Below are positions 7,990 to 57,622 of a stretch of 64,000 nucleotides of DNA, one piece after another. The notes beneath the pieces were generated by a model. It saw only the letters and a list, made by a program, of their open reading frames with translations, did no database searches and had not been told where the DNA came from. A program made the translations under genes and the position numbers. The first letter of the stretch is position 1. Each line of letters begins with the position of its first letter. Source of the DNA: an uncultured delta proteobacterium (GTDB lineage: Bacteria; Myxococcota_A; Polyangia; Fen-1088); NCBI GenBank assembly GCA_963737265.1, contig CAVTRY010000021.1, positions 224,001 to 288,000 on the forward strand. The letters run 5' to 3'.

Positions 7990-10336
<2,347 letters not shown>

Positions 10337-38846: not shown

Positions 38847-39675
38847 TTCGGCCGGCGCGCAGGTCGGCGACGACTTGGATGGCGACTTCGTGCACGCGTC
38901 CGTTGGATGCGACGAGGCCGCTCGGATTTTGCAAAGTCGGGTTGGCGTAGCACAGGGCGCTGCCGCTGCAATCAGTGATTCTGCCGCCCGCCGCGGTCAG
39001 AATCGCTTCCGGACCGCAACTGTCCCATATCTTGGTGTGACCACCGGGGTAGACGTAAAGGTCGCGCGAACCTTCCGCGATGAGCGCAACCTTGAGCCCG
39101 ACGCTGCCCAAAGCAAGCTCGTCCTCGACGCCGAGCGCCCGTCGAAACCGTTGGTAGTACTCGCTGCGATGGGATTTGGATGAGACCAACCGAATGTCGG
39201 AGGATTTGTCGATCGCCGATACTCGCAACGGCGCGCGTTCGCCTCCGGGCGACTCCTTCCAGGCCCCCATGCCGACCACGCCCAGCCACACCTGTCGCGT
39301 GGCGGGCTGAACCACGACCCCCAGCAACGGCCGGCCTGCAACGCAGAGGCCGAGCATGACGACATAGCTGGTATCGCCGGCTACGAAATCGCGCGTGCCG
39401 TCGATGGGGTCGATCATCCACACCCGTGGATTGACGAGTCGCTCGCCGTCGTCGGGTATTTCCTCCGACAGGACCGCGTCGCCGGGAAACGCGTGGCGCA
39501 AGCGCCGCACGATGAGCTCGCTCGATTGGAGATCCGCCTGGGTCACCGGCTCGCCGCCGCTCTTGTGCTCCACGCCGAGCGGACGGCCGGTGAAACTGGC
39601 GACAAGCGCCCCCGCTTCGAGCGCCACAGCGCGCGCGGTTTCGAGCTCGCGGGAAAGATCCACGGTTGGCGACAT
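38842..39675 (-). CDS. cysQ: 3'(2'),5'-bisphosphate nucleotidase (inositol monophosphatase family)
   Basis: PVTQAD, SEE, IDPIDGT, SKSH, WD motifs. Confidence 0.92.
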   Translation of the reverse strand: MSPTVDLSRELETARAVALEAGALVASFTGRPLGVEHKSGGEPVTQADLQSSELIVRRLRHAFPGDAVLSEEIPDDGERLVNPRVWMIDPIDGTRDFVAGDTSYVVMLGLCVAGRPLLGVVVQPATRQVWLGVVGMGAWKESPGGERAPLRVSAIDKSSDIRLVSSKSHRSEYYQRFRRALGVEDELALGSVGLKVALIAEGSRDLYVYPGGHTKIWDSCGPEAILTAAGGRITDCSGSALCYANPTLQNPSGLVASNGRVHEVAIQVVADLRAGRI

Positions 39676-39803
39676 GCGACGGAACCATAGCAGGCGAATT
39701 CTTGGCGGGGCCAGCTCGCCTCGATTTCTGTCGGCGAACAGATCGCGGTTGCAGGGTCCGCCGCTTCTTCATTTCAACATATTCAATCCGCGTTACACTC
39801 GCC

Positions 39804-40664
39804 TTGGCCGCGCGATTTCGACTCATCGAAGAAGACGGCCGCTACCGCCTCGACGGCAAGGTGACGACTTTCTCGGGCGCGCCCAGCCCCGACGAACGCC
39901 TCGCCCTCTACCTGGCACGCGAGCAGGCCGCCGGCTGGAAGCACACCTCGCTTGGCCGCGCCCTCGACACCCTGTGGAACCGCGTTTCGTCGACCGATGG
40001 CCAAGCCGCCCTCTTTCCCGTCGAGACCGTACCGTGGTTCGCCACGCGCGGCTTTTCCGCGATCGACTACTGCCAACACCGCCACATCCTCGAAACCATC
40101 GAGCGCGCAACCCGCGAGCGCACCGTCATCGCCGCCCGCTACCGCGCCGCCTCGTCCGGCCAACTCACCAGCCGCCACATCGAACCCGGCCAGCTTCACT
40201 GGGATCCCGGCCTCGAGAGTCTCTACCTTATCGGGTGGTGCCGCCTGCGCAACGACGTGCGCGTCTTCGCCATCCATCGCTTCGCCGCCGTCACCCTCCT
40301 CGACGAGCGCTGCCCGCCCCGCGCCGAAACAAGATCGGTGGCGGCGTTGCGGAAGGCCTTTCGCGTGTGGCGGAGCGATCGCGTAGAAAGGGTCCGCATC
40401 GCATTCACCGCCGACATCGCCGCCGAGATCCGCGAACGCAAGTGGATGGCCGGACAACAAGTCGTGGAAGACAACGGCGGCGTGATCCTCAGCGGAGACG
40501 TCGCGGGATTGGCCGAAGTCGAACGCTGGGTCTTGAGCTACGGACCATCGGCGAAAGTGCTGGAGCCGGTGGAGCTGGCCGAAAGCGTGGCGAAGAAGCT
40601 GCGCGAAGGCGCGGCGGGGTACGCGGAAAAGACGGCGCGCGGACGAAAGGTTGACCAGAGATGA
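39804..40664 (+). CDS. WYL/WCX-domain regulator, N-terminal HTH apparently missing
   Basis: RHIEPGQL...LYLIGWCRLRNDVRVFAIHRF (WYL) and WVLSYGPSAKVLEPVEL (WCX). Confidence 0.85.
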   Translation: MAARFRLIEEDGRYRLDGKVTTFSGAPSPDERLALYLAREQAAGWKHTSLGRALDTLWNRVSSTDGQAALFPVETVPWFATRGFSAIDYCQHRHILETIERATRERTVIAARYRAASSGQLTSRHIEPGQLHWDPGLESLYLIGWCRLRNDVRVFAIHRFAAVTLLDERCPPRAETRSVAALRKAFRVWRSDRVERVRIAFTADIAAEIRERKWMAGQQVVEDNGGVILSGDVAGLAEVERWVLSYGPSAKVLEPVELAESVAKKLREGAAGYAEKTARGRKVDQR

Positions 40665-40683
40665 CAATAGCGGGGTGTAGGGT
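40651..40683 (+). promoter_or_regulatory. Putative WYL-activated promoter of cas3 operon
   Basis: TTGACC-agaga-TGACAA-tagcggggtg-TAGGGT; same architecture at 47999-48031. Confidence 0.6.
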
Positions 40684-40710
40684 GGCGGGGATCAGAAAGA
40701 CCCACGAGGC

Positions 40711-43536
40711 ATGAACATGTCCGAATCCAACGAACACCCGGAGATCCCGTTCTTCCGCACGAAGTTCAAGGCGCTGATGGGGTTCCTCCCGATGCCGTGG
40801 CAGGAAGCCCTGTTCTCACGTTTCCTCAGCGCCGACCTCCCGTCCGCATGTGACATCCCCACGGGCTTGGGCAAGACAGCGGTGATGGCGATCTGGCTTA
40901 TCACCCTGGCTCGTCAGGCCCAACGGGGCGATGTAGGGTTGCCCAGGCGCTTGGTCTACGTCGTGAACCGCCGGACAGTGGTGGACCAAGCGACCCGCGA
41001 GGCCGAGAAGATGCGCGAGGCACTAGGTACTCCCGATCTCGCTCCCGAGGCCAGCGCGCTACGGGGGCTATGTGCAACCGCCTCCGAATGTCCCCTTGCG
41101 GTCAGCACGCTGCGCGGCCAGTTCGCTGACAACGCTGAATGGCGCATTGATCCGGGCCGACCGGCGATCGTGGTGGGGACGGTGGATATGATTGGCAGCA
41201 GACTGCTCTTTTCGGGTTACGGCTGCGGCTTCAAATCCAGGCCACTTCACGCCGGATTTCTCGGTCAGGATTCACTTCTGGTACACGACGAGGCCCACCT
41301 TGAGCCTGCGTTCCAAGCCCTCATCACCGCGATCGAAAGGGAACAGGATCGTTGCCATGACGTGCGGCCCCTCCGAGTACTAGCCTTGACGGCCACGTCG
41401 CGAGACAATCGGTCCGCGGCTGGTCTCACGGACGCCGAGCAGACACCGGGCTCCGTTCCCAATGCGAGCCAACCGCTCCGCGAGGTGTGGAAGCGCACGT
41501 CCGCGAAGAAGGGCATCGCGTTCCATCCTGTCAGCGAAGAAGGTGCGATTCCGGACAAGGTTCTGGAACTGGCGAAGGTTGACGAGAACAGCGGCAAAGC
41601 TGTCTTGGTCTTTCTCCGAAAACTCGACCACGTCGAGAAGGTCGCTGGGAAGCTCCCAGAGGAAAGGACCCGGTCGCTCACCGGTACGATGCGAGGATGC
41701 GAGCGAGATATTCTGGTCACCGGGGATTCGGTCTTTGCGCGCTTCCTCCGCAAATCGCCGGTGGGTGTGACACCTCAAAGCGGTACCGTGTACCTCGTCT
41801 GCACCTCGGCCGGTGAAGTTGGCGTCAATATCTCAGCTGACTATCTCGTCAGCGACCTGACCCCCTTCGACAGCATGGCCCAGCGCTTCGGCAGGGTGAA
41901 TCGATTCGGTGATGGCGACGCGAGAATCGACATCGTTCACGCGGTTGTCGGCTCCTCGGAAGAGACTGCCGAACCGCCCCTCAACGCGCAAGACGCGCCA
42001 GTCCCCTCGAATGGTACGGGGGCAGGAGACGGAACAGAGAATGACGCCAGTGCAAACGCTACCCTCGTCGAGGGGGACAACAAAGGAAAAGATACGGACG
42101 ACGGCGTGTCTGCCTTTGACCGCGCTTGCACCAACACTTTCCGACTGCTGGAGCGCCTGCGGGTGCGCGACGATGGTCGTCGTGATGCCAGTCCCATCGG
42201 TCTCGCAACTCTGCCGCCTGAAGACCGCCAAGCCGCATTCACGCCCGCACCGGCGATTCCCGCGGTGACTGACATTCTGTTCGATGCCTGGGCGCTGACC
42301 TCTGTGCGCGGGAGAATGCCTGGCCGGCCTCCGGTTGCCGAATGGCTGCACGGCATCGCAACGTGGGAGCCTCCTGAGACCCACGTCGCGTGGCGCGAAG
42401 AGGTCAGCCGTCTACGCGACAACATCCTGGAGCAAGCCGCCCCCGAGGATCTGCTCGATGATTACCCACTCAAGCCTCACGAGTTGCTACGCGATGTCAC
42501 TGGTCGCATCGAGCGGGAGATCAAGAACCTCGCAAGGATCGCTGAGAACAAGCGGCTCCCCGTCTGGCTCCGTGACGACGACGGCAAGATAGCGGTGACG
42601 ACGCTCGCCGATATCGTGAACGGCGACGGCCTCGATCTCCGCAGAATGACAGTCATATTGCCGCCAGAGATGGGCGGTCTGAGCGACCGAGGCACCCTCG
42701 ACGGCAAAGCCAAGTTCGATGAGGGAACCCACTACGACATCGCTGACGAGTGGAAGGACGAACATGGTCACTTCCGCCGAAAGCGCCTGTGGGACGACGA
42801 GCCCCAACCACACGGAATGCGATTGGTGTGTGCAATCGACTGCGATCCTGACGCCGCCGAGGCGACGGGGGATGAAGAAGAAGGCGGCAAGCGCTGGTGG
42901 CGTTGGTATGCCCAGCCGCGTTCAGCAGACGACGAGGGCTCTCAAAGCGCCCTGACTCCGCAGGAGCTCGGTCCCCACCTCTCTGCTGCTTCACATTTCG
43001 GCACCATGATCGTCGGCCACCTCGGGCTCGATGAGCCTGCCAGGACTGCTGTCTTGCTCGCCGCAGGCTGGCACGACCAGGGGAAACGCCGAGCGATCTG
43101 GCAGCGCGCCGTCGGAAATCAGCACTATCCCAGCCTCGTGCTGGCAAAGCCGGCCGGCAAGATGAACATTGCCAACCTGAGCAACTACCGCCACGAGTTG
43201 GGTTCGCTGCTTGAGGTCCAAGCCGATGCGAAGTTCCGCTCCCTTGCGCAAGAGGTGCAGGATCTTGTCCTGCATTTCATCGCCAGCCATCACGGTCGTG
43301 CTCGGCCGCACTTCTTCGAGAGCGAGGCATTCGACAACGAGCATCCCGAGTCCTTGGCGCTTGCCGCCGCCGGCGAAGCCCCACGCCGATTCGCTCGACT
43401 CCAGCGACGGTACGGCCGCTGGGGTCTCGCCTATCTCGAGTCGTTGCTTCGCGCCGCCGATGCCCTCGCCTCCCAGGTCGATGACGGCCGGCCAGCAGGC
43501 TCGGACGCACGAGACGCGACCGGAGGTGTTCAATGA
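40711..43536 (+). CDS. cas3: Type I-G Cas3 helicase with C-terminal HD nuclease
   Basis: PTGLGKT, DEAH, TAT, QRFGRVNRFG; C-terminal WHDQGK, RHE, SHHG. Confidence 0.96.
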   Translation: MNMSESNEHPEIPFFRTKFKALMGFLPMPWQEALFSRFLSADLPSACDIPTGLGKTAVMAIWLITLARQAQRGDVGLPRRLVYVVNRRTVVDQATREAEKMREALGTPDLAPEASALRGLCATASECPLAVSTLRGQFADNAEWRIDPGRPAIVVGTVDMIGSRLLFSGYGCGFKSRPLHAGFLGQDSLLVHDEAHLEPAFQALITAIEREQDRCHDVRPLRVLALTATSRDNRSAAGLTDAEQTPGSVPNASQPLREVWKRTSAKKGIAFHPVSEEGAIPDKVLELAKVDENSGKAVLVFLRKLDHVEKVAGKLPEERTRSLTGTMRGCERDILVTGDSVFARFLRKSPVGVTPQSGTVYLVCTSAGEVGVNISADYLVSDLTPFDSMAQRFGRVNRFGDGDARIDIVHAVVGSSEETAEPPLNAQDAPVPSNGTGAGDGTENDASANATLVEGDNKGKDTDDGVSAFDRACTNTFRLLERLRVRDDGRRDASPIGLATLPPEDRQAAFTPAPAIPAVTDILFDAWALTSVRGRMPGRPPVAEWLHGIATWEPPETHVAWREEVSRLRDNILEQAAPEDLLDDYPLKPHELLRDVTGRIEREIKNLARIAENKRLPVWLRDDDGKIAVTTLADIVNGDGLDLRRMTVILPPEMGGLSDRGTLDGKAKFDEGTHYDIADEWKDEHGHFRRKRLWDDEPQPHGMRLVCAIDCDPDAAEATGDEEEGGKRWWRWYAQPRSADDEGSQSALTPQELGPHLSAASHFGTMIVGHLGLDEPARTAVLLAAGWHDQGKRRAIWQRAVGNQHYPSLVLAKPAGKMNIANLSNYRHELGSLLEVQADAKFRSLAQEVQDLVLHFIASHHGRARPHFFESEAFDNEHPESLALAAAGEAPRRFARLQRRYGRWGLAYLESLLRAADALASQVDDGRPAGSDARDATGGVQ

Positions 43537-44411
43537 GCGGGCGGGCCGAAGACACAATCCGCATCCGCGTCGATCCAACCAATCCCGGCCAATTCTTCGC
43601 CTGCTGTGGTCTTCTGGAACTCGCGGACCGCCTCTGGGGCGGGGCCGAGGGATGGTTCGACGCCGACAGTCTCGGCTTCAACCTGCGGGCATTGTCCGCC
43701 TCTGGGCGGACCGCGGAAGACCTGCTGGTGCAGATGGCCCGTAGCGCGCTGACAAACACTATGACGGCCGCACAAATTGATCGGCGTGAATCCCTCGGTG
43801 CAATCCCGAAGAAAGCAAGGAGCAAAGCTATCGACACCGAAAAGGCGAAACTCGACAGCATTTGGAGAGAGGCGCCCGTGGTTCTGGGACACCCGTTCGG
43901 AATTCTCTTGGATTGGTTCCGGGACGACCAGTCGGGAGGTAGTGACCTCAAGACCTGGGCGGGGCAACAGTCGGCGATAGAGATAGCCCGCAGCATGCGG
44001 GCGGCCGCCGGCACGGTCCTGAGGGAAATTCAGCCTGACCTCTGCCTATCGGCCATGGCTGCCGACGACTCTCTTCCTTTCAACTTTGATTCGGATCTTG
44101 GCGCAGTGGGCGGAGCCCTCGACGTTGGCTTCAGCTTCGACCCATTGAAAGACATCGCCGTCCGAATCAAACCACTCACCGAGTTTGCGGCCTTCGTCGG
44201 CCTTCAACGATTCCGCCCACGCCGGATGGGCAAGGAAAACCGGTATCGCTACGGAACGTGGAAGCAGCCTATGGAACCGAGCGTCGCTCAAGTTGCAGCG
44301 TGCGGACTGCTTGGCACAGAAGCGGCTGCGATCTGGGAGTTTAGGCTTCTCTATCGAACGAAATACTTGAAGAGCTTTCTGCCTTCTCAACCAACTGGAG
44401 GTCCCCAATGA
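43533..44411 (+). CDS. cas8: Type I-G large subunit (Cas8u2/Csb3-like)
   Basis: VDPTNPGQFFACCGLLELA start, KTWAGQQ, GLQRFRP; located between cas3 and cas7. Confidence 0.8.
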   Translation: MSGRAEDTIRIRVDPTNPGQFFACCGLLELADRLWGGAEGWFDADSLGFNLRALSASGRTAEDLLVQMARSALTNTMTAAQIDRRESLGAIPKKARSKAIDTEKAKLDSIWREAPVVLGHPFGILLDWFRDDQSGGSDLKTWAGQQSAIEIARSMRAAAGTVLREIQPDLCLSAMAADDSLPFNFDSDLGAVGGALDVGFSFDPLKDIAVRIKPLTEFAAFVGLQRFRPRRMGKENRYRYGTWKQPMEPSVAQVAACGLLGTEAAAIWEFRLLYRTKYLKSFLPSQPTGGPQ

Positions 44412-44928
44412 GCGAGGAATCAACCGTCAAACTCGAGAGTTACGATTCGTGGCTAGCTGACGATACCGGCCCGGCCGCACTGGTCATCCGGGAGAACCTG
44501 ATTCCCGTGGAGGGGCCCGACGGCGTTTTGTTCCCCGCCACATTCGCCGCCGGGGACGGGTTCAAGGGCGGATACAATATTGACACATTCCCTGATGGCA
44601 AGAACGTCTGCCTCGTCGACAGCGTCGGTTCGCAAGCGAACAGAATCGAGCCATTGTTTGCCCAGGGGGCCTATGTGGGCCTAGTGCCCCAAGTGATCGT
44701 GAAGGCCGGGGAAAAGAGGGTGAACCTGCTCGATGCTGGGCACCGCGCAGGGGATGCCATAGTCCGGTGTTCCGCGCTGAAACAGCCGCTCCAGGACGCG
44801 TTCAAAGCGGCTCTCAGGGGCGACTGTCGGCCCCTTGCAGAGATCGCACCGACCTCCCTCGTATTCGGCGTCTGGGTGATGGAAACCCGAAGAAGGTTCA
44901 GAAGTCACGGAGCAAGTCTGCCAAGTAG
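44408..44928 (+). pseudogene. cas7: Type I-G Cas7 (Csb1), internally deleted
   Basis: FPATF, DSVGSQANRIE, HRAGDA, PTSLVFGVW then homology stops at codon 156; Lys-rich tail with stop at 44926-44928 in another frame. Confidence 0.85.
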
Positions 44929-44940
44929 GGGGATCATGGC

Positions 44941-46569
44941 ATGCCTTCCGCTCTTGGCCTCTCGATTCACTTCCTCGATCCGGTATTCCACGGCCGACGG
45001 GATGGCGGTGAGCCGGAGTGGCCGCCCTCTCCCCTTCGCGCGCTGCAATCGCTGATTTCCGCCGCCGCGGCGAGGCGGAGCGACGTTCGACTCCCCAAGG
45101 GCACCGAGTCGGCCTTGCTGTGGCTTGAACGTCAATCGGCGCCAATGCTCATTGCCCCCGCAGGAATGACAGGCACCGGATATCGCCTTTCCGTCCCCAA
45201 CAACGCGATGGATGTCGTCGCAAGTGCCTGGACTCGCGGCAACAACTCCAACTCGGGCGACGCCAACCCAGCCACCCATCGCACCATGAAAGCTGTCATT
45301 CCGACGTGGATGCTGGATGGCGACACCGTCCGCTACCTTTGGGAGCTTCCCGAGCCCATCTCCGACGAGGTTCGCGCTCATGTCGACAGCCTCTGCACGG
45401 TCGCCCGCAGCATCGTCGCGCTTGGGTGGGGAATAGACATGGTCGTTGCCCATGGTGCAGTCATCTCCGAACAGGACGCCGCCGCCTTGCCCGGCGAACG
45501 ATGGTTGCCAGTCGACGAGGCCACGGCGAACACGCTCCGCGTTCCCAAAGAGGGGACGCTTGGGGATCTCGCAAGGCGACATGAGAGGTTCCTGAGCCGG
45601 CTGCACAACGACGACCGCGGACGAACCACGTTCGCCGCGCCTCCGCCGCTGACTGTGTTCGGTGTTGTCGGCTATCGCCGGGCTACCGACCCGCAGCCGC
45701 GGGCTGCAGCCGCCTTCGCATTGTTGAAGCTCGACGGAACGCGATTCCGACCGTTCGATGCCGCACGGCGGGCGCTTTCCGTGGCTGGCATGGTTCGGCA
45801 TGCGACAAAGGTAGCAGCCAAATCGTCTGGAAAGCCGGACTCCTGGATCGACACGTTTGTCCTTGGGCACGGTGAGATGATCGGGGCCTCTGAACACAAG
45901 GCAGTAGGTCCCGACCGTTTTGCCTACCTGCCGATGCCAAGCATTGAGCGCCGAGGTGGTGGCCATGCCTGCCACGTCGGCAGCGTACGGCGAGTGATGC
46001 TGACGTGCATGACGCCAGGACACCGGGATGAGATCGCCTGGGCGCGACGGTCTCTGTCCGGACAGGATCTCATCGATGAAAGGAAGGACGAGCCAACCGC
46101 GCTTCTCAGACTTCTGCCAAGCGGTGACGGGGTGCTTCAGCACTACCTCCATCCTGCTTCCACCTGGGCTACTGTCACCCCAGTCGTTCTCCCCGGCTTC
46201 GATGATCCCGAGCACTACCGGCGGCGACTCAAGAAGGGATCGAGCGTTGACGAGCAGCAACGACTGCTCGCCCGCCTTGCCGACAGGATCGAGGGGCTGC
46301 TCCGCAAAGCCATCGTCCAGGCCGGCCTTCCATCAACACTGGCCGACCACGCCACTCTCGAATGGCGGAAGGTGGGCTTCTGGCCGGGTACCGAGCGTGC
46401 CGACTGCTATGGCGTCCCCGACCACTTGAAGCGCTTTCCCCGTCTGCACGTGAAGGTCACCTGGCGAGACGCCGCTGGCAATCCCCTCGCCTTGCCTGGC
46501 CCGCTCTGCCTCGGCGGTGGTCGCTATTGCGGATTGGGGCTTTTCGCGGCCCTACCGAACGTCCGGTAG
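44941..46569 (+). CDS. csb2: Type I-G Csb2 (Cas5-Cas6 fusion)
   Basis: EWPPSPLRALQSL, LGWGID, WATVTP, GPLCLGGGRYCGLGLF Gly-rich loop. Confidence 0.93.
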   Translation: MPSALGLSIHFLDPVFHGRRDGGEPEWPPSPLRALQSLISAAAARRSDVRLPKGTESALLWLERQSAPMLIAPAGMTGTGYRLSVPNNAMDVVASAWTRGNNSNSGDANPATHRTMKAVIPTWMLDGDTVRYLWELPEPISDEVRAHVDSLCTVARSIVALGWGIDMVVAHGAVISEQDAAALPGERWLPVDEATANTLRVPKEGTLGDLARRHERFLSRLHNDDRGRTTFAAPPPLTVFGVVGYRRATDPQPRAAAAFALLKLDGTRFRPFDAARRALSVAGMVRHATKVAAKSSGKPDSWIDTFVLGHGEMIGASEHKAVGPDRFAYLPMPSIERRGGGHACHVGSVRRVMLTCMTPGHRDEIAWARRSLSGQDLIDERKDEPTALLRLLPSGDGVLQHYLHPASTWATVTPVVLPGFDDPEHYRRRLKKGSSVDEQQRLLARLADRIEGLLRKAIVQAGLPSTLADHATLEWRKVGFWPGTERADCYGVPDHLKRFPRLHVKVTWRDAAGNPLALPGPLCLGGGRYCGLGLFAALPNVR

Positions 46570-46825
46570 AAATCATCCTGCGCGTTGGCACGACAACGTC
46601 CAATACCCGAATTCTCATGGGCTCCACATCGCGCACGTGGCGCATCTCGCGCAAGCGTTCCCAGTATCCACCCGGCCAGGCCTTGCTCTGGATCGGTTCC
46701 AGAATGACCGCATCACCCTCCCGCCGAACCCGCACCTCATCACCAGGCAGGCGAAAATCTTTCGGCAGTATTACTGCCTGCGATCTTCCATTCTTGAACA
46801 GTCGTGTAGTGGCAACCGATCCCAT
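46570..46825 (-). pseudogene. vapB: VapB/VagC (AbrB-fold) antitoxin lacking own stop and lacking vapC
   Basis: TTRLFKNGRSQAVILPKDFRLPGDEVRVRREGDAVILEP; frame runs on into antisense of csb2. Confidence 0.75.
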
Positions 46826-46863
46826 GGCCTTGCCTTCCTGACAGCTACCGGCACACATTCCAC

Positions 46864-47920
46864 CTACCCCGCCAGCAACCCGCTCACCGCAAGGTCGTAG
46901 TCCGGCCTTGTCCCGTCCCACAATGGCAGGTTCGTGTCCGGCCCAAGGTCGAGTCCGCGGTCATCCGCCCACTCGGCGAGCCAGGTCAGGATGTCGCCAG
47001 CCCATTCGCGCGGAGGCTCCTTGTCCAACGACTTGCCGGCGGGCGACGTGAAGACGAACTCGCCGTCGGCGCCGCGCGCGACCGACCAGCCGCCCTCGTG
47101 AACCATGTGATGGTGGGCGGTACAGAGCATCACCAGGTTGTCGACGCTGGTTTCGCCACCGTGTAGCCAGTGCTGTATGTGGTGGCCATGCAGAAAGCGC
47201 GCGTGAGTGCAGCCTGGAAACGCGCAGCCCTGGTCGCGCAACATCAGGGCCCTGCGAATCGCGGGCGAAATCGTCCGGGTGCGACGGCCGATGTTCAGCG
47301 TCTCGCCGCTGCCGCTGGCCGCCACCACGCCGCAATCGCAGGCCACCCTTCGCAGCGTTTCCGCGGAAACGCGGGTGCCGTCTTCGAGGGTTCCAGCCGT
47401 CGAACCATCCGGACCAAGCACATTTTGATCCACGTGCACCACGACCTGGAAACGCTCGCCGCCGGTTCCGGTCACGGGCTTGCTGGTCAAGAAGGATTCG
47501 GCCATCGCCACGGCGCCGTCCGCACGTGACGGCCAGCCCGCTTCGTCCGACGTTTCCGCGGAAGAGTCTACATGGGAGCCCTCGAAGGGTTCCCATATCC
47601 TCCCGCGATGGTTCGCTGCCGGCAAAGCCGGCAGGCTCCCCACGCTCACATGCCCCTCCTTCTCGGCGTTCACCTCGCGCGCCCGGTCGATCGCGCGCAG
47701 GACCAAATCCGCCTCGTCGGGAGAAAGCACCAATTCCAGCTTCACCATTCCGCCCGGCAACAGTCGTTGGCGCACGGAACGGTCCTCGGGCGCTGGCGCC
47801 GCGTCCGCAGCCTGCGCGCTTCTATAGCCTCGGCAAATCCGTTCGAGCTGCGCGCCAGTCGCGTGCAATGCCAATTCCAGAAGGCGCGCTTCGTTCTCTG
47901 GCGTGGCCACGCGGGTCACT
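46864..47920 (-). pseudogene. DUF222-HNH endonuclease, 5'-truncated
   Basis: TRVATPENEARLL, RRVACD, RDQGCAFPGC, HHIQHW..GG.T..DNLVMLCTAHHHMVH; N-terminal DUF222 part absent. Confidence 0.8.
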
Positions 47921-47998
47921 CGACGGAGAACATGCCGAAGACTATACATCCGTTCAGTTTCCGCGGCAATTGGAATTTCTTCAATTGCGTCCGATTCA

Positions 47999-48031
47999 TT
48001 GTCCTTACCTGACAATGCCTTTCCGTACCCT
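47999..48031 (+). promoter_or_regulatory. Putative WYL-activated promoter of cas4-cas1/cas2, possibly leaderless
   Basis: TTGTCC-ttacc-TGACAA-tgcctttccg-TACCCT, ending 6 nt before ATG 48038; includes the CATTGTC/GACAATG palindrome. Confidence 0.6.
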
Positions 48032-48037
48032 GGTGGC

Positions 48038-49747
48038 ATGGAAGAAAATGCCACGCCCGCCCAGCCCGTCGATGTGCCCGAATTGATCCCGGCGCGGATG
48101 CTCAACGAGTTCGCGTATTGCCCACGCCTCGTCTACTTGGAATGGGTGCAGGGCGATTTCGCGGACAGTGCCGACACGGTCGATGGCCGGCACCAGCATC
48201 GTCGCGTCGACAAGGAATCCGGAAATCTGCCGCCCGCGGATCGCATGCCGGAAGAGCACGACATCCTGCACGCCCGTTCGCTCTATCTCTCGGCGCCACG
48301 GATAGGGCTGGTCGCGCGCATCGATCTTGTCGAGGCCCAGGACGGCAAGGTGACCCCCATCGACTACAAGCGTGGGGAGGCCCCCGATGTTGCCGAGGGT
48401 GCGTGGGAGCCCGAGCGTGTGCAGGTGTGCGCGCAGGGACTGATTCTGGAAGAGAACGGATACGCCTGCGAGGGCGGCGTGATCTACTTCGTGGCCTCGC
48501 ACAAGCGTGTCGCGATTCCCTTCACCAATGAACTGCGGACACGCACATTGTACCTGCTTGCCGAAATGCGCGCGGCCATGGCCGCAAACGAGATTCCACC
48601 ACCGCTCGACGACAGCCCCAAGTGCCCGCGATGCTCCCTGTGCGGAATTTGCCTGCCTGACGAGATCAATCTATTGCGTCTTGCCGATGCCAACAAGTCG
48701 ACGCCGCCCGAACCACGGCGGCTCGTCGCCGCGCGCGACGATGCCTTGCCGCTCTACGTGCAGGCGTCCGGTGCGCGTGTGGGCAAGAGCGGCGAGGAGT
48801 TTGTCGTCACCCCACGCGAGGGGGAGAAGCAGACGGCGCGCATCGGGCAGACATCGCAGGTCGCCCTGCTCGGCCAGGTGCAGATGAGCACCCAGGCCAT
48901 CGAGGCAGCCCTCGGCCGCGGCATCCCGGTCTGCTATTTCTCGTTCGGGGGGTGGTTCTACGGGATGACCACCGGGCTTTGGCACAAGAACGTGGAACTG
49001 CGCCGCTTGCAGTTCCGCGCCGCGGAGTCGCCTGTAACCAGCTTGGCGCTGGCGCGGGCATTCGTCGCGACCAAGATCCGCAACTGTCGCACGTTCCTAC
49101 GCCGCAACGCCGACGACGTCCCCGTCCAGGCCATCGACATGCTTCGCCGTCTGGCCGAGGACACCGAGCAATGTGCCTGCGCCGAATCGCTGCTGGGCAT
49201 CGAAGGCACCGCGGCTCGCGTCTATTTCGAGAACTTCCCGCGCCTGCTCAAGCGCCCGGACAGCGATGGCAACCTGGCTTTCGATTTCACCGGCCGCAAC
49301 CGCCGGCCGCCTCGCGATCCGCTGAATGCCTTGCTGTCCTTGGCCTATTCGCTGCTCGCCAAGGACTTCACTGTCACCCTGCAGTCGGTGGGATTCGACC
49401 CGTTCATGGGCTTCTACCATCGGCCGCGCTACGGCCGGCCGGCGCTGGCGCTGGACCTGATGGAAGAATTCAGGCCGCTGGTCGCCGACTCGGTGGTCCT
49501 TGGAGCCGTCAACACCGGCATCGTCCAGCGCGGCGACTTCGTTGGCCGCGCTGGTGCGGTTTCGTTGTCCGACAGCGGGCGCGGCCGTTTCCTGCATGCC
49601 TACGAGCGCCGCATGGACGAGTTGGTCACGCACCCGGTTTTCGGCTACCGCATTAGTTACCGGCGCGTGCTCGAAGTGCAGGCAAGGCTGCTGGCCCGAT
49701 TCCTGGGCGGTGAGATTCCCGAGTACCCGGGCTTCCAGACGAGGTAG
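48038..49747 (+). CDS. cas1: Cas4-Cas1 fusion
   Basis: Cas4: YCPR, RIDLVE, DYKRG, CPRCSLCGICLP; Cas1: GIEGTAARVYF, NALLSLAY, GFYH, DLMEEFR. Confidence 0.97.
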   Translation: MEENATPAQPVDVPELIPARMLNEFAYCPRLVYLEWVQGDFADSADTVDGRHQHRRVDKESGNLPPADRMPEEHDILHARSLYLSAPRIGLVARIDLVEAQDGKVTPIDYKRGEAPDVAEGAWEPERVQVCAQGLILEENGYACEGGVIYFVASHKRVAIPFTNELRTRTLYLLAEMRAAMAANEIPPPLDDSPKCPRCSLCGICLPDEINLLRLADANKSTPPEPRRLVAARDDALPLYVQASGARVGKSGEEFVVTPREGEKQTARIGQTSQVALLGQVQMSTQAIEAALGRGIPVCYFSFGGWFYGMTTGLWHKNVELRRLQFRAAESPVTSLALARAFVATKIRNCRTFLRRNADDVPVQAIDMLRRLAEDTEQCACAESLLGIEGTAARVYFENFPRLLKRPDSDGNLAFDFTGRNRRPPRDPLNALLSLAYSLLAKDFTVTLQSVGFDPFMGFYHRPRYGRPALALDLMEEFRPLVADSVVLGAVNTGIVQRGDFVGRAGAVSLSDSGRGRFLHAYERRMDELVTHPVFGYRISYRRVLEVQARLLARFLGGEIPEYPGFQTR

Positions 49748-49751
49748 AATC

Positions 49752-50042
49752 GTGCGCAATGTGTTCCTCGTGTGCTACGACGTGTGCGACGACAAGCGTC
49801 TAAAGAGGGTTTACAAAGCGATGCGCGGCTTCGGCGACCACCTACAGTTCTCGGTCTTTCGCTGCGAGCTTTCCGCCCGCGAGCGCGCCGAGATGATCGC
49901 CGAGCTTTCTCCGCTCATCGCCCACGATGAGGACCAAGTGCTGATCATCGACATCGGCCCGGCCGACGGCCGTGCCAGCCTGGTGTTCCAAGCGCTCGGA
50001 AAGCCCTACGTCGCGCCAGAGCGCCACGCAGTCATCGTGTGA
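49752..50042 (+). CDS. cas2: Cas2
   Basis: FLVCYDVCDDKRL...GDHLQFSVFRC; 96 aa from GTG. Confidence 0.95.
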   Translation: MRNVFLVCYDVCDDKRLKRVYKAMRGFGDHLQFSVFRCELSARERAEMIAELSPLIAHDEDQVLIIDIGPADGRASLVFQALGKPYVAPERHAVIV

Positions 50043-50282
50043 CCCGTGATCTCTGACAACCGAAGAATCCCCATGGTTTCGCCCTCGCGAGCGCCGTCGC
50101 GACGCGATTTGCTTCCGTGCCGCTCGCACGCCGACGCCGTCGATAACATAGCGAAATCCGGGCGAAAAGGAGACCACCCTCCATCGGATAGTTCTTCGTT
50201 CACGGTTTCTTGCCGTGTCACGTGGATTCGCTCGCAAACGGCCTCGCAAGTCCCTTCACCCACAGCAGAATTCGCAGGAGCC
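50043..50282 (+). promoter_or_regulatory. CRISPR leader
   Basis: Non-coding 240 bp between cas2 and first repeat. Confidence 0.75.
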
Positions 50283-53200
50283 ATTTCCGCCGTCCTCGGA
50301 CGGCGGCCCCATTGAAGCGGAGGTTACCGCGGTGGGGCTCACAGCCTCATCCATGGGATTTCCGCCGTCCTCGGACGGCGGCCCCATTGAAGCCCTGACC
50401 ACGCACGCGGTTCTCTCCTCGTACGCGCATTTCCGCCGTCCTCGGACGGCGGCCCCATTGAAGCTCATGGCCACGCTCGCAGCTGGGACGAAAACCGAAT
50501 TTCCGCCGTCCTCGGACGGCGGCCCCATTGAAGCTTGCCGGCCAGCAGGCCATCGGCGCCGGCCGGGTTATTTCCGCCGTCCTCGGACGGCGGCCCCATT
50601 GAAGCTCGTTGCTCACCCACGCGGTGAACTTCTTCAGTAGGTCATTTCCGCCGTCCTCGGACGGCGGCCCCATTGAAGCGGCTATAACGAGTCGAGCGAC
50701 AACTCGCACTGGGATATTTCCGCCGTCCTCGGACGGCGGCCCCATTGAAGCGATGAGCGTCGTGAAGAAGAACGGCCCGGTGCCGAAATTTCCGCCGTCC
50801 TCGGACGGCGGCCCCATTGAAGCGTAGATGTCGCCGAGCCCGATCATGACGCCCCTCCATATTTCCGCCGTCCTCGGACGGCGGCCCCATTGAAGCAAGC
50901 CGGCGGATGACCGGAGAAAGTCTCAGAAGCTGGCATTTCCGCCGTCCTCGGACGGCGGCCCCATTGAAGCGACATGACCCGAGCTGTCCTTGACCGCGAT
51001 GCCAAGCTATTTCCGCCGTCCTCGGACGGCGGCCCCATTGAAGCGGTTGACCACGTTCAGGGCCTGGACCGCCTCCGGCCATTTCCGCCGTCCTCGGACG
51101 GCGGCCCCATTGAAGCCAGCTAGCCGTCCACACAGGACTGACCTACTCGTGGCTATTTCCGCCGTCCTCGGACGGCGGCCCCATTGAAGCTTGACCGCTT
51201 GAACTTGTGGAACAAGTCGGTGCAGGATTTCCGCCGTCCTCGGACGGCGGCCCCATTGAAGCCCGCTGGTCTGCTGGTTTTGCCGTCGCGAGATTCGATT
51301 TCCGCCGTCCTCGGACGGCGGCCCCATTGAAGCGCCATGACGTTGCAGATGTGTATTTGACACTCGTCATTTCCGCCGTCCTCGGACGGCGGCCCCATTG
51401 AAGCGTGAAGTCGACAACTTCATTAGGCGAGGACGAACGCGATTTCCCCCGTCCTCGGACGGCGGCCCCATTGAAGCGGCGGGTCACTTGACGGCGTGGC
51501 CGATGCAGTCCCGATTTCCGCCGTCCTCGGACGGCGGCCCCATTGAAGCTTGCGCCTCTCGCGTGCCGCCAGTTACACCAACAAGGATTTCCGCCGTCCT
51601 CGGACGGCGGCCCCATTGAAGCCGCTCCGCCTGCTCCGCTTGGCGCACAAGCGTATCGATTTCCGCCGTCCTCGGACGGCGGCCCCATTGAAGCGCATGA
51701 CGTGGAATTCGCAGAGGCGCTGCTGGCTGAATTTCCGCCGTCCTCGGACGGCGGCCCCATTGAAGCAGCACGTCGTTAGATCGCGCGCCGACAAAAGACG
51801 AGATTTCCGCCGTCCTCGGACGGCGGCCCCATTGAAGCGTCTCGTGGTTTGGTGCCTACGCATCGGGCTCCGCAATTTCCGCCGTCCTCGGACGGCGGCC
51901 CCATTGAAGCCTGGCACGGGGAACGGAGCCGTTTCAGGTTCTCCGGATTTCCGCCGTCCTCGGACGGCGGCCCCATTGAAGCCACATCTGCAAGCGAGCA
52001 TGATCGCGGTTCTTTCTGCATTTCCGCCGTCCTCGGACGGCGGCCCCATTGAAGCCGCACCTGATAGCGCTCGTCCGTTACCGTCGGGCAACATTTCCGC
52101 CGTCCTCGGACGGCGGCCCCATTGAAGCATTTCTCACTAATCTATTCTTGCCAGTGAGAATAGGATTTCCGCCGTCCTCGGACGGCGGCCCCATTGAAGC
52201 GCGGCATCGGCGCCAGCGGCGGCAAGGCGAGCGAGGCATTTCCGCCGTCCTCGGACGGCGGCCCCATTGAAGCTTTGTGATCCAGTCTACAGTGCTACTC
52301 CACCATCCCATATTTCCGCCGTCCTCGGACGGCGGCCCCATTGAAGCGTCGCGCCCCCACCGCCGCATGCCCGCGCAAGCTCCCCGATTTCCGCCGTCCT
52401 CGGACGGCGGCCCCATTGAAGCCGTTGCACGAACACACTAACGCCGCCCGGTTGAGAAATTTCCGCCGTCCTCGGACGGCGGCCCCATTGAAGCTGCGCG
52501 CTCGCGATTTCGGTGTCGCGCAGCTGGTTGATTTCCGCCGTCCTCGGACGGCGGCCCCATTGAAGCATTGTTTCGTCGCTGGTGGCGGACGGTCTGCTGC
52601 ACAATTTCCGCCGTCCTCGGACGGCGGCCCCATTGAAGCTCTCCAGGAACGGCCATTATGGTGCCCTCCGTGCGTATTTCCGCCGTCCTCGGACGGCGGC
52701 CCCATTGAAGCGTGCCGTCGATTTTCTCGGTAATCACGCACTGGCGCGATTTCCGCCGTCCTCGGACGGCGGCCCCATTGAAGCTGATCGCACTGGCGGT
52801 CGAGGCAACGGCGCCTGTAATCATTTCCGCCGTCCTCGGACGGCGGCCCCATTGAAGCCGCAGAGCCGCAGCCCGCATCGCTGGTGCGGCGCCGCCATTT
52901 CCGCCGTCCTCGGACGGCGGCCCCATTGAAGCTTACTCGTTTCTCTCGTGCGAGGTCGGGAAGCCCGGATTTCCGCCGTCCTCGGACGGCGGCCCCATTG
53001 AAGCTGCCGTTGCGAGCGCCCGGTCAGCGTCTCGTTCCCGCATTTCCGCCGTCCTCGGACGGCGGCCCCATTGAAGCGAGTCCTTAATCCAGGCGGTGAA
53101 CCGCGACAGCAGCCGATTTCCGCCGTCCTCGGACGGCGGCCCCATTGAAGCTCGTAGTTGAACATCACCGACGCCGCCTCCACTATGGATTTCCGCCGTC

Positions 53201-55191
53201 CTCGGACGGCGGCCCCATTGAAGCTGGACGAGACGCAGCTTGCGCTGCAACAAAGGCTTCCATTTCCGCCGTCCTCGGACGGCGGCCCCATTGAAGCGGA
53301 TACGTCGTACGCGAACCAACTCCTCGTGGCGGAGATTTCCGCCGTCCTCGGACGGCGGCCCCATTGAAGCGAATTTTCTCCCTTTCGAGGTTGCCAATTA
53401 GAGCGGTATTTCCGCCGTCCTCGGACGGCGGCCCCATTGAAGCGAGGTCACGGGCGCTTGGCTGTCGTACGGGACAACTATTTCCGCCGTCCTCGGACGG
53501 CGGCCCCATTGAAGCTAGGGCAGGTTCTTGGCGGCCTCGTGCGTTCGCAAATTTCCGCCGTCCTCGGACGGCGGCCCCATTGAAGCTTCAAGACGGTCGC
53601 GCATGTCCGGACGCCTGGCTATAGATTTCCGCCGTCCTCGGACGGCGGCCCCATTGAAGCGCAGGCAACCTTGCTGCTGCCCGGCCGGCGGTGGCTATTT
53701 CCGCCGTCCTCGGACGGCGGCCCCATTGAAGCCAACTGACCCAGGCGCAGGCACATCGAATCAAAGCGCTCATTTCCGCCGTCCTCGGACGGCGGCCCCA
53801 TTGAAGCTGCTCGACCGACATCAGCCCAGGCATCGATCAGAAATTTCCGCCGTCCTCGGACGGCGGCCCCATTGAAGCATCCGGATGAGCGCGCCGCCGT
53901 GCTCTTCCGCGGCGATTTCCGCCGTCCTCGGACGGCGGCCCCATTGAAGCTGCACAGGCTGCTCGGACGCTTGGTGTCCAAATGGAATTTCCGCCGTCCT
54001 CGGACGGCGGCCCCATTGAAGCGCGGATATCGTCTGCGTGCTCGATGCGTTCTCGAAATTTCCGCCGTCCTCGGACGGCGGCCCCATTGAAGCATCCGAT
54101 TAGTAGCGGAGCGATTTCGACCACCGCTCCGGATTTCCGCCGTCCTCGGACGGCGGCCCCATTGAAGCTGCCTACGCATCGGGCTCCGCATTGTCGACAG
54201 TTCCATTTCCGCCGTCCTCGGACGGCGGCCCCATTGAAGCCCCAGCCGCCGCATTGCCAAACGGCTGGACGATTCGTTCGATTTCCGCCGTCCTCGGACG
54301 GCGGCCCCATTGAAGCCCGATGACGATTGCCCCCTCGATGGCACTGGGCAGGTTATTTCCGCCGTCCTCGGACGGCGGCCCCATTGAAGCACGAGGCGCG
54401 GGAGGACGCTGCTCAACGATTCGAGCGTATTTCCGCCGTCCTCGGACAGCGGCCCCATTGAAGCGCCGCATGCTTCGCATAGATGACATCCTGCCTGGCC
54501 TTATTTCCGCCGTCCTCGGACGGCGGCCCCATTGAAGCCGTCGTGGATCAACTGCGCGCCCCGCCGGTACGCCGATTTCCGCCGTCCTCGGACGGCGGCC
54601 CCATTGAAGCTCGGATGTCACGCTATTGGCTGCGAGCGCCGGCACGGGGCGATTTCCGCCGTCCTCGGACGGCGGCCCCATTGAAGCCAGTCGGAGCGGG
54701 GCGGGCGATTGGTAGATGGGTTGATTTCCGCCGTCCTCGGACGGCGGCCCCATTGAAGCAGGCAACTGCGGAGAACTCGCCCGCATTCAGAACGAGCAAT
54801 TTCCGCCGTCCTCGGACGGCGGCCCCATTGAAGCAACCGGACGCCCTGCGCGCCGGATACGATCTCGATGATTTCCGCCGTCCTCGGACGGCGGCCCCAT
54901 TGAAGCGGGGCATGGCAGAGCATCGCCAACGAGGATTCGTCATTTCCGCCGTCCTCGGACGGCGGCCCCATTGAAGCTTGGCCACGCCTACCGTCCAGTT
55001 CGCGTGGTGCACCAATTTCCGCCGTCCTCGGACGGCGGCCCCATTGAAGCGAGAGGAAATCCCGATTGCGCTCGCGATTCAGCAAATTTCCGCCGTCCTC
55101 GGACGGCGGCCCCATTGAAGCGGGCCAGTAACGCATGTCTACGGAGAGATCAACTTCGATTTCCGCCGTCCTCGGACGGCGGCCCCATTGA

Positions 55192-56619
55192 CATAGGCAT
55201 TAACCCAATTCCTCCGCAAGATGTTGCTGGAACTTAACGGCGCTGCGTAGACGCTTGCGCGGGACTTGGAGTTGAAGGTGGTCAAGGAATGCCTGCAAGA
55301 AATCGGGAAACCGACTGGCGCTGATCGGCGTGAGCGCCGCGCATACGGTTTGCCAGAGGACGGTCATGAGACGCCATGGCTCGGCTACGACCCGGTGCTT
55401 TGATCGCCTGAGTCCGGCCCTGACGCCTTTCTGCGGCTCGTCGGATGCCGAACCAGTCGAGTTCTCCACAGGGGGGAATAGCCACGTTGGGTGTAGCAAG
55501 TTTGCGGGCGATCTGGGTAAGCAGCATCTTGGCGCAAATCCAGGAATAGACAGTGTCGTTGCGAAAGTTGGGCAGTCGGTCGAGCCCTGCGATGGATTTG
55601 TCCCGCTTGATGTGAAGCTCGATTTGCCAGCGGAGGCCGTATAGTTCCATGACCAGGGCGGCGGTCAGCCGCGACCTCGGTACGGTCGTGAACACCACCA
55701 CGTACTGCGCGGCCGCAAGGGTTTCCTCAGTCACAGACGGACCTTGTTCCCGTCGCGCGCGCTGCCGAGCCTCCTCTGCTTTGTCGGGCGGCAAGAGCAA
55801 CGCGCACAGCCGGCCAGCGATCGCCTTGCCACCCTGCGGATGGACCTCTGCGTACCATTCGCGTGCAACCCCCGGATGCTTGAGGCGAGCCAGCATTCGC
55901 TGAACGTCGAGTAGCTGCCCGTTCATGCCGTACAGAGGAAGCGAGCCACGGTTGTATCGGACCAGTACGTCGGCATCCGCCGCCATGATCGCCGCTATGC
56001 CAGGCGGGTTCGAGCAGCCGCGGTCGCCCATCCACAGTTGTCCCGCCTCGGCATCGAAGTTTCTGAACGTCTCGCCGCCCTTGTCATCCGTGACCTCGAT
56101 TTGCACAGGCCGCAACGTGCTCAAGCGCAGCGCATAGTGAACGCGAGCCGTGGTGCCCTCGGCTCCTGGCCGCGACACCGAAGAGCCGTCCACGATCACC
56201 ACGTCGTAGCCCGCCCATCGCTCCGCTGCGAACGAAGCCTCGGCATCCGTCATCAGCGTCACCAGTCGCGCCAGGTAGGGACCAATGGTTCTCATTCGCT
56301 TGTGCAGCCCGACTGCCGACATCTTGATCACCCCGGCCGCCGCCGCCATCGCCACCGTCACGGCCAGCGACGAGTTCGTCGCCACCTGGTACAGAATCGG
56401 CTGCAGCAAATGTGCCGCCTCGGTCACCTTCGTGCCCATGTGCGCCGGAAACTTCGTGTAGACCACGCCCATCTCGACCGCCAGATCCTCCCATCCGGAT
56501 GGAAGCTGCGCCGCAATCATTGGCCAGTCGCCCGTGGTGCTGTTCTTCGCTATGTTGTCCATCCCGAGCATATGCGGGTGTTCTTGGAGAAATCGCAAGT
56601 TTTTGGGTTAATGCCTATG
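55192..56619 (-). mobile_element. IS4-family insertion sequence inside a CRISPR repeat
   Basis: 17-bp perfect IR CATAGGCATTAACCCAA; 11-bp TSD GGCCCCATTGA at 55181-55191 and 56620-56630. Confidence 0.93.
55282..56598 (-). CDS. IS4-family DDE transposase
   Basis: VDGS, GDRG, YGLRWQIELHIK (Y-R-E-K signature); start codon uncertain. Confidence 0.9.
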   Translation of the reverse strand: MRFLQEHPHMLGMDNIAKNSTTGDWPMIAAQLPSGWEDLAVEMGVVYTKFPAHMGTKVTEAAHLLQPILYQVATNSSLAVTVAMAAAAGVIKMSAVGLHKRMRTIGPYLARLVTLMTDAEASFAAERWAGYDVVIVDGSSVSRPGAEGTTARVHYALRLSTLRPVQIEVTDDKGGETFRNFDAEAGQLWMGDRGCSNPPGIAAIMAADADVLVRYNRGSLPLYGMNGQLLDVQRMLARLKHPGVAREWYAEVHPQGGKAIAGRLCALLLPPDKAEEARQRARREQGPSVTEETLAAAQYVVVFTTVPRSRLTAALVMELYGLRWQIELHIKRDKSIAGLDRLPNFRNDTVYSWICAKMLLTQIARKLATPNVAIPPCGELDWFGIRRAAERRQGRTQAIKAPGRSRAMASHDRPLANRMRGAHADQRQSVSRFLAGIP

Positions 56620-57622
56620 GGCCCCATTGAAGCCATTCAGAGACCCAGTCAGAACCCCTGGTGTCTCCGGTGATTTCCGCCGTCCTCGGACGGCGGCCCC
56701 ATTGAAGCAGCTGGCAGAGGAAACGCCGTCCGGTTGCTACGATGATTTCCGCCGTCCTCGGACGGCGGCCCCATTGAAGCGGGTTAGTTGGCTATTGCCA
56801 CTCCGTAGAATGCGCCATTTCCGCCGTCCTCGGACGGCGGCCCCATTGAAGCTTGGCCACGACGCCGCCACACCCGGAGCATTCTTGGATTTCCGCCGTC
56901 CTCTGACGGCGGCCCCATTGAAGCAGGATTGCCGCCACGCCGTCTTCGCTCATCGTCGATATTTCCGCCGTCCTCGGACGGCGGCCCCATTGAAGCTCCG
57001 CGGCGTGGATACTGCCTGCTTTAGCTGGCAGATTTCCGCCGTCCTCGGACGGCGGCCCCATTGAAGCCTCGGGTGGGGCGCAGGGTGTGCTGGGGCAGGT
57101 CATCGATTTCCGCCGTCCTCGGACGGCGGCCCCATTGAAGCAGAGCGTAGCGTAAGTATTGGTTCGAAAAGTACGGCATTTCCGCCGTCCTCGGACGGCG
57201 GCCCCATTGAAGCTCATTCGTCTGGCGTGGCTACCTGTAAAGACCTGCGAGATTTCCGCCGTCCTCGGACGGCGGCCCCATTGAAGCCACACCTCGCGGT
57301 AGCAATACGCGAGCGCCTCAATATCATTTCCGCCGTCCTCGGACGGCGGCCCCATTGAAGCTAGGTCTCTGGCTGCTTCTCGGCCCCGATCACCTCGATT
57401 TCCGCCGTCCTCGGACGGCGGCCCCATTGAAGCCCCGACCTGGTGCCCGATACGCGGATGCCCTGGAACACATTTCCGCCGTCCTCGGACGGCGGCCCCA
57501 TTGAAGCCACCCCAAGCTGTTTCTGTCCTCGCACGGGCGGCCCATTTCCGCCGTCCTCGGACGGCGGCCCCATTGAAGCAACATTATCCGACAAGGGGCC
57601 GAAGCAAGATCGCCAGATTTCC

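Follow-up and report, generated by a model that had tools for sequence, protein, structure and literature searches.

We describe a DNA element that stands before both groups of cas genes in a type I-G CRISPR-Cas locus of an uncultured delta proteobacterium (contig CAVTRY010000021.1), within an analysed stretch of 64 kb that we call the window. The element is an inverted repeat of the general form TTGWC-N7-GACAA, followed after 10 nt by a −10-like hexamer, and it recurs in other genomes at the 3' ends of genes for related WYL-domain proteins. Below we show the motif, its conservation and geometry, and its association with cas genes and with this WYL family. We consider it likely, at a probability of roughly three in four, that the element is the operator-promoter of a cas-dedicated, DriD-like WYL transcription activator; its binding, activation of transcription, start sites and ligand are predictions.

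In the window, TTGACC-N5-TGACAA-N10-TAGGGT is found at 40651-40683 ahead of cas3, and TTGTCC-N5-TGACAA-N10-TACCCT at 47999-48031 ahead of a cas4-cas1 fusion gene, both on the plus strand. Direct reading of the window thus bears out an earlier note on this DNA, which had reported the two motifs with this identical spacing. They are the sole exact matches to TTGWCC-N5-TGACAA in the window, where a first-order Markov model expects 0.008, for a pattern itself taken from these two sites. The sites are identical at 18 of 33 positions. The first 17 nt of each form the inverted repeat, of which the note says nothing; it is perfect at box 2 (TTGTC-N7-GACAA, 47999-48015) and has one mismatch at box 1 (TTGAC-N7-GACAA, 40651-40667); the −10-like hexamers lie at 40678-40683 (TAGGGT, predicted start near 40690) and 48026-48031 (TACCCT, start site likewise predicted). 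Box 1 overlaps the final codons and the TGA stop (40662-40664) of a WYL gene (Pfam WYL and WCX) which, as the note had said, sits directly upstream of cas3. It was also right that the second motif ends 6 nt before an ATG, that of cas4-cas1 at 48038. The two candidate ATGs of cas3 are 27 and 33 nt past the hexamer of site 1 and have GAGG upstream of them, so that a leaderless mRNA looks to be predicted for cas4-cas1 only. No box was found in the CRISPR leader of the window. In a related locus (L001:10885-10908, the counterpart of window 40691-40714) an ATG 7 nt past the hexamer opens a 7-codon open reading frame (ORF) that runs with its stop into the cas3 ATG; in the window this ATG is replaced by ATC. 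A leaderless leader peptide coupled to cas3 is possible in L001.

The earlier note had asked for conservation of the motif in orthologous loci, and this is amply found. One scan of GTDB genomes with the WYL alignment gave 27 loci totaling 412,661 bp, to which the pattern of that note, fixed before these loci were examined, was applied. The relatives so found suggest that the window's locus belongs among the Myxococcota/Polyangia. It has 14 exact matches where 0.05 are expected, and 21 matches with at most one mismatch, and every one of these is on the WYL strand, downstream of the WYL gene or within its end. Confirmed cas genes follow in 18 of the 27 loci, belonging to type I-G (of two kinds), I-C, I-E and I-MYXAN. 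The other nine comprise two contigs that end in the WYL gene, one that ends 76 nt after it, one with only a cas7-like remnant (judged by eye), two 3'-truncated WYL genes with neither box nor cas genes, and three Binatia loci without cas genes. Among the 18 cas loci, 13 have a match with at most one mismatch, three have variant arms and one has a degenerate upstream arm, leaving a single locus, L020, to be considered below. Where toxin-antitoxin or other genes intervene between the WYL and cas genes (L003, L005, L012), the box moves with the cas gene.

The same 33-mer emerged without any prior pattern: a Gibbs sampler from which the window was excluded recovered it in 19 of 20 upstream regions, at 27.6 bits vs 13.3-14.0 for shuffled sequences. 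The box can also be followed through the proteins, since 61 of 113 full-length homologs (49 + 12, in two frames) end in a box-compatible peptide; the main C-terminal signature occurs in none of 563 internal windows. For box 2, an arm matrix from other loci ranked 47999 first and 40651 second (22.9 and 22.3 bits) among 127,962 positions, the best unrelated site scoring 13.4 bits; this matrix scores arm and TA..T columns only, and the sites used to train it had been selected by means of the window's own pattern.

The geometry of the element was measured at 18 Myxococcota sites picked without use of the hexamer (leaving out L016, L018, L021, L026, and the Binatia, Thermus and window sites). A hexamer of the form xAxxxT (A2, T6) lies at spacer 10 in 17 of these 18, and no other spacer between 5 and 19 has it in more than one; where the hexamer falls outside the WYL ORF, the count at spacer 10 is 10 of 11. 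At none of 26 tabulated sites does the best −35 at 16-18 nt exceed 3/6, and there is no TG extension at the position checked. An ATG or GTG often follows 5-7 nt past the hexamer. A constant distance to a −10-like hexamer and the lack of a −35 suggest, from sequence, an activator-type promoter, and a site placed over the −35 position at fixed distance from the (predicted) −10 and start is the arrangement of DriD-type promoters. Neither TTGACC nor TGACAA can be read as a sigma70 −35, the spacing being wrong, and a promoter scan of 39500-50300 found no plus-strand promoter.

The arms change as the WYL protein diverges. The sister proteins of L021 and L026, on a long branch, have arms GTGAC-N7-GTCAC and CGGAC-N7-GTCCG, respectively, and L016 has ATGTC-N7-GACGT; all three variants keep the hexamer at spacer 10. 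Further afield, a plasmid WYL protein of Thermus thermophilus (28-29% identical) is encoded directly before the cas3 of a type I-E operon. In strains HB8 and JL-18 the 3' end of this gene, before cas3, carries CCGAC-N7-GTCGG-N10-TAAGGT-N6-ATG (in HB8 pTT27 at L028:9948, with a leaderless ATG), and a second box, CCGTC-N7-GTCGG-N10-TAGCCT, stands before casA (L028:12752). Among distant plasmid WYL genes the full geometry at the 3' end was found for Thermus (two strains) and for an Acinetobacter YafY-type gene, and arms only or shifted spacing for Clostridium, Treponema and Acaryochloris, against a background for the loose pattern of ~3e-5 per position (41 matches in 825,322). Nothing convincing was found near the distant WYL genes of Deinococcus, Variovorax, Spirosoma, Synechocystis pSYSM and Cereibacter.

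Full-length orthologs of the window's WYL protein match HTH_11 (weakly), WYL and WCX, making them class A WYL regulators (winged helix-turn-helix [wHTH]-WYL-WCX), with a modeled helical linker (helices 76-116) between wHTH and WYL. DriD is the best profile match (E 1.5e-17) and takes Foldseek ranks 1-7 (TM ~0.57), with PafBC behind it and BrxR and CapW far behind, by profile and fold alike; the root-mean-square deviation of 11-14 Å between model and DriD means that domain packing differs. The window and the annotated loci each have a single WYL gene rather than a PafB/PafC-type pair. The window's own copy (39806-40664, plus strand) is 5'-truncated: alignment with full-length homologs shows its start and wHTH to be missing, about residues 1-48 of 333-aa orthologs, and DNA homology begins at 39806 (vs L013) and 39823 (vs L001). 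In a structure model of the L001 ortholog the missing part corresponds to the three wHTH helices (residues 2-49), so this copy lacks the DNA-binding domain of class A regulators.

Among characterized WYL regulators with a solved structure, DriD of Caulobacter crescentus comes closest, in sequence as in fold. Passages of PMC12392091 give the DriD site as CGAC-N7-GTCG and that of DdaA as CGWCA-N5-TGWCG, and those of PMC13004042 show DriD sites that cover the −35 position and keep a constant distance from the −10, in promoters without a −35. In three printed DriD promoters the second arm is, by our count, 12 nt away from the presumed −10 hexamer. The family here resembles DriD in its homodimer-type palindrome, its GWC-N7-GWC core and the 12 nt from arm to hexamer; it differs in identity (~22%), in the outer bases TT...AA, in having Ala for one single-stranded DNA (ssDNA)-binding Arg, and in its targets, which are adjacent cas operons whereas those of DriD are scattered DNA-damage genes.

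The earlier note had instead likened the element to a PafBC promoter, a comparison that holds only in part. Passages of PMC8635444 describe mycobacterial PafBC as a heterodimer with one half-site and the same arm-to-hexamer distance. PafBC reads its half-site by sigma adaptation, whereas the element here has two arms and a single WYL gene goes with it. A lone GTC half-site would likewise lie 12 nt from the −10, and to that extent the spacing agrees, but here the arm nearer the hexamer reads GAC and a second, conserved arm stands beside it; the palindrome has two arms, as the DriD and DdaA sites have. Geometry, sequence and modeled fold thus point to a DriD-type homodimeric activator over PafBC.

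That a WYL protein can activate CRISPR genes is already known: DdaA of Acinetobacter/Moraxellaceae has been shown to drive expression of type I-F CRISPR-Cas and restriction-modification genes (passages of PMC12392091 and PMC13010146). DdaA, unlike the WYL proteins here, is a global DNA-damage regulator and not the product of a dedicated cas-adjacent gene, and its site (CGWCA-N5-TGWCG in passages of PMC12392091) lies ~50 bp upstream of the start, further upstream than the box here; outer bases and position both differ at the Myxococcota sites. The Acinetobacter WYL protein of L040 (231 aa) could not be identified as DdaA. SiwR of Mycobacterium smegmatis is a homodimeric activator of an adjacent operon that uses an intergenic palindrome and needs the −26 region (passages of PMC10693628); it targets dinB-like genes through a different palindrome. 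WYL proteins are known to span myxobacterial CRISPR subtypes and to group together, and the passages of PMC11237760 on them mention no operator, promoter or direction of regulation. Further background is found in passages of PMC9186387, PMC12288472, PMC7662524 and PMC5529391. The box is undescribed in the literature searched, which did not take in most subscription papers (those on Thermus CRP and on the phage transcriptome among them), and we found there no earlier description of a dedicated cas-adjacent WYL gene with a box at its own 3' end. One supplementary file of PMC12392091 had no matches for Myxococc, Polyangi, Thermus, Sorangium or I-G; other supplements of that paper may cover the clade.

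As we picture it, an intact wHTH-WYL-WCX homodimer would bind the two GWC arms, at about −39 to −23 where a −35 would lie, and would recruit housekeeping RNA polymerase to a promoter whose sole hexamer is the −10, so turning on the cas operon directly behind the WYL gene. The second promoter, before cas4-cas1, would serve adaptation genes cut off from the first transcript. By analogy, the switch may be a nucleic-acid ligand such as ssDNA at the WYL domain. The earlier note's proposal that DNA damage or foreign nucleic acid induces the regulon is likewise conjecture.

The main rival to this interpretation is that the same WYL protein might bind the box as a repressor, like BrxR, CapW or Sll7009, with a ligand releasing the promoter. 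Defence-linked WYL proteins are usually taken as repressors (passages of PMC13010146, PMC9122601 and PMC4012209) where we predict an activator instead, and a protein bound across the −35 region can keep polymerase off the promoter. But the absence of a −35 at the 26 tabulated sites and of a TG extension leaves little basal promoter to repress, and the rigid 10-nt spacing is typical of activators. BrxR and CapW, whose similarity to this family is weak, match far less well than DriD and PafBC, and BrxR represses from an inverted repeat before its own gene that sits downstream of its −10 (passages of PMC9122601). Here, within 300 bp upstream of the WYL genes, the best match to the box has at least three mismatches in 25 of 25 cases (other repeats were not searched for). 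We regard repression as unlikely.

Less probable still is that the box belongs to another trans factor, such as a LexA-like global regulator or an alternative sigma, with the WYL gene a mere neighbor. Persistence of the box in the window, though the local WYL protein cannot bind DNA, would fit such a factor; an alternative sigma would have to work with 10 nt, which is too short for −35/−10 spacing. All close matches in the 412 kb of flanks and in the 64-kb window stand either after a WYL gene or ahead of a cas gene, arm sequence varies from one WYL lineage to the next, and the core GWC-N7-GWC equals the DriD and DdaA cores given in the passages cited above. Box 2 could alternatively serve the divergent DUF222-HNH gene upstream of it, the palindrome being symmetric and a sigma70-like site lying 30 nt away on the minus strand (47969-47941). 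Such sites occur there at chance level (two found, 1.4 expected), xAxxxT stands at spacer 10 on the cas side only, and L012 and L014 have a box before cas4-cas1 with other upstream neighbors, which makes this assignment very improbable. Finally, site 1, like many of its counterparts in other loci, extends over the end of the WYL gene, and the TAG or TGA of the motif is often the stop, as a by-product of C-terminal coding constraint might be; yet the box occurs in different reading frames and nine of 18 sites are wholly outside the WYL ORF. Chance and coding constraint alike are refuted by the scan and the geometry, with 14 exact matches vs 0.05 expected, and we give this pair of explanations practically no weight.

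Several observations nonetheless weigh against a cas-dedicated WYL activator. The 27 loci are contigs of related metagenome-assembled genomes, and the counts from them are not independent events; L020 has cas genes yet no clear box; and the six plasmid I-G loci without this WYL clade, whose lack of matches at one mismatch or fewer speaks for the WYL link, come from other phyla and are a weak control. The three Binatia loci have perfect arms but no hexamer at spacer 10 and no cas genes. The first of the two conserved Arg of the DriD ssDNA site is Ala in all 19 aligned family members (F-A-x-x-R vs R-x-x-R); DdaA shares this change yet responds to UV and mitomycin C (passages of PMC12392091). The Synechocystis WYL protein Sll7009 is a repressor of type I-D CRISPR (passages of PMC4012209). 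Box 2 has difficulties of its own, ranking only sixth (4.9 bits) with the full 33-column de novo matrix built from first-gene sites, because its spacer positions are pyrimidine-rich, as they are at the cas1 sites of L012 and L014. In just these two of nine other loci does a box precede cas1 (the L012 gene being inferred from 15 codons), and none was found there in L003, L006, L007, L018, L019, L020 or L026. In several box-less loci cas1 continues the operon; in L003 and L018, cas4-cas1 is separated yet has no box, and these are real counter-examples. The earlier claim of a shared promoter before both cas operons therefore stands for this window, where a WYL-linked, conserved box precedes cas3 and cas4-cas1 alike, and fails as a general rule for the adaptation genes.

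WYL genes are common beside cas operons, and for most of them it is not known which site the protein binds or whether it activates or represses. Our results supply, for a cas-linked WYL clade across four type I subtypes, a concrete predicted operator and promoter geometry and a prediction of activation; the arm variants that track WYL lineages offer a small recognition code. A broader idea, which we offer only tentatively, is that the WYL gene with its 3'-end box forms a portable sensor-plus-promoter cassette, placed before unrelated type I cas operons (I-G, I-C, I-E and I-MYXAN in Myxococcota, I-E in Thermus), that would make CRISPR immunity ssDNA-inducible, Cas3 feedback included. The ssDNA fragments could come from invasion, from other defences (Argonaute, restriction) or from Cas3 itself, and Cas3-made ssDNA would act as positive feedback, also boosting spacer acquisition through the second box.

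Thermus provides weak outside hints for such a cassette. In passages of PMC3084264, tthb187 and tthb190-194 rise in a T. thermophilus mutL mutant and the I-E genes are described as CRP-controlled; in passages of PMC4229858, expression of TTHB187-194 is lower in mutants of Argonaute. Neither paper names the WYL gene TTHB186 in these passages. These expression changes are compatible with nucleic-acid control inside the operon, the sources attributing them to CRP or leaving them open. With two such boxes inside its I-E operon, T. thermophilus HB8 is a laboratory model for a direct test.

The window's locus runs, in order, WYL, cas3g, cas8g2, cas7g, csb2, an antisense DUF222-HNH gene, cas4-cas1, cas2 and array; the type I-G gene set (cas3g, cas8g, cas7g, csb2, cas4/1, cas2, array) is thus all present, with cas7 broken. 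On the plus strand are cas3 (40717-43536, or from the alternative ATG at 40711; TIGR02621), cas8g2 (43533-44411; TIGR04106), cas7g or csb1 (44408-44928), csb2 or cas5/6 (44941-46569; TIGR02165, PF09609), the cas4-cas1 fusion (48038-49747; NF049935), cas2 (49752-50042, start approximate; PF09827) and a CRISPR array of 110 repeats of 36 nt (50283-61183). The array is interrupted by two insertion sequences, at 55195-56672 and 57580-59115 (DDE_Tnp_1 and ISL3 transposases). The DUF222-HNH gene (46864-47950, minus strand; PF02720 from profile position 97 of 306 only, PF01844) is apparently 5'-truncated and separates the interference genes from the adaptation genes; a DUF222-HNH gene is also antisense after the interference genes in L001 (20569-20855).

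TIGR02570 matches only the first ~160 aa of cas7g, and comparison with L001 shows an internal deletion of ~600 bp near 44876-44881 with a frame change, the middle of the gene joining its 3' tail. Cascade is probably non-functional despite the 110-repeat array. With a WYL protein lacking its wHTH and a broken cas7, the window's regulon is probably not working, and the local circuit is probably a relic, inactive unless an intact WYL protein elsewhere acts in trans. Self-targeting spacers were considered as the cause of cas7 loss; no spacer match >19 nt was found to the non-array window or to the loci.

In each Binatia locus a promoter-like site, TTGCC-N16/17-TAAA, comes after the box, together with a conserved hairpin of ~135 nt whose ends are paired (L023:10812-10960, L024:10824-10968, L025:10872-11020). 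An Rfam search of this hairpin gave no match; a 12-nt stretch of it recurs just past the window's array (~61240). The hairpin could be a repeat element, or else a non-coding RNA under WYL control.

Genes with a DGQHR domain occur in or beside I-G loci (L010:11090-12235, L018:7939-9123, L001:18944-20101), and in two of these three the DGQHR gene is the first gene behind the box; in L007 that place is taken by a DnaQ-like exonuclease gene (identified by eye). Unrelated YafY/WYL genes also end in GWC-N7-GWC, at L040:3210, L039:6960, L043:6424 and L042:6538, with genes for a GST, an amidotransferase, a dynamin pair and an I-E cas3 behind them, and the 3'-end layout may be general for this WYL class. 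Elsewhere in the window, a copper P-type ATPase gene (7990-10336) is split across two overlapping frames, by a frameshift or a sequencing error.

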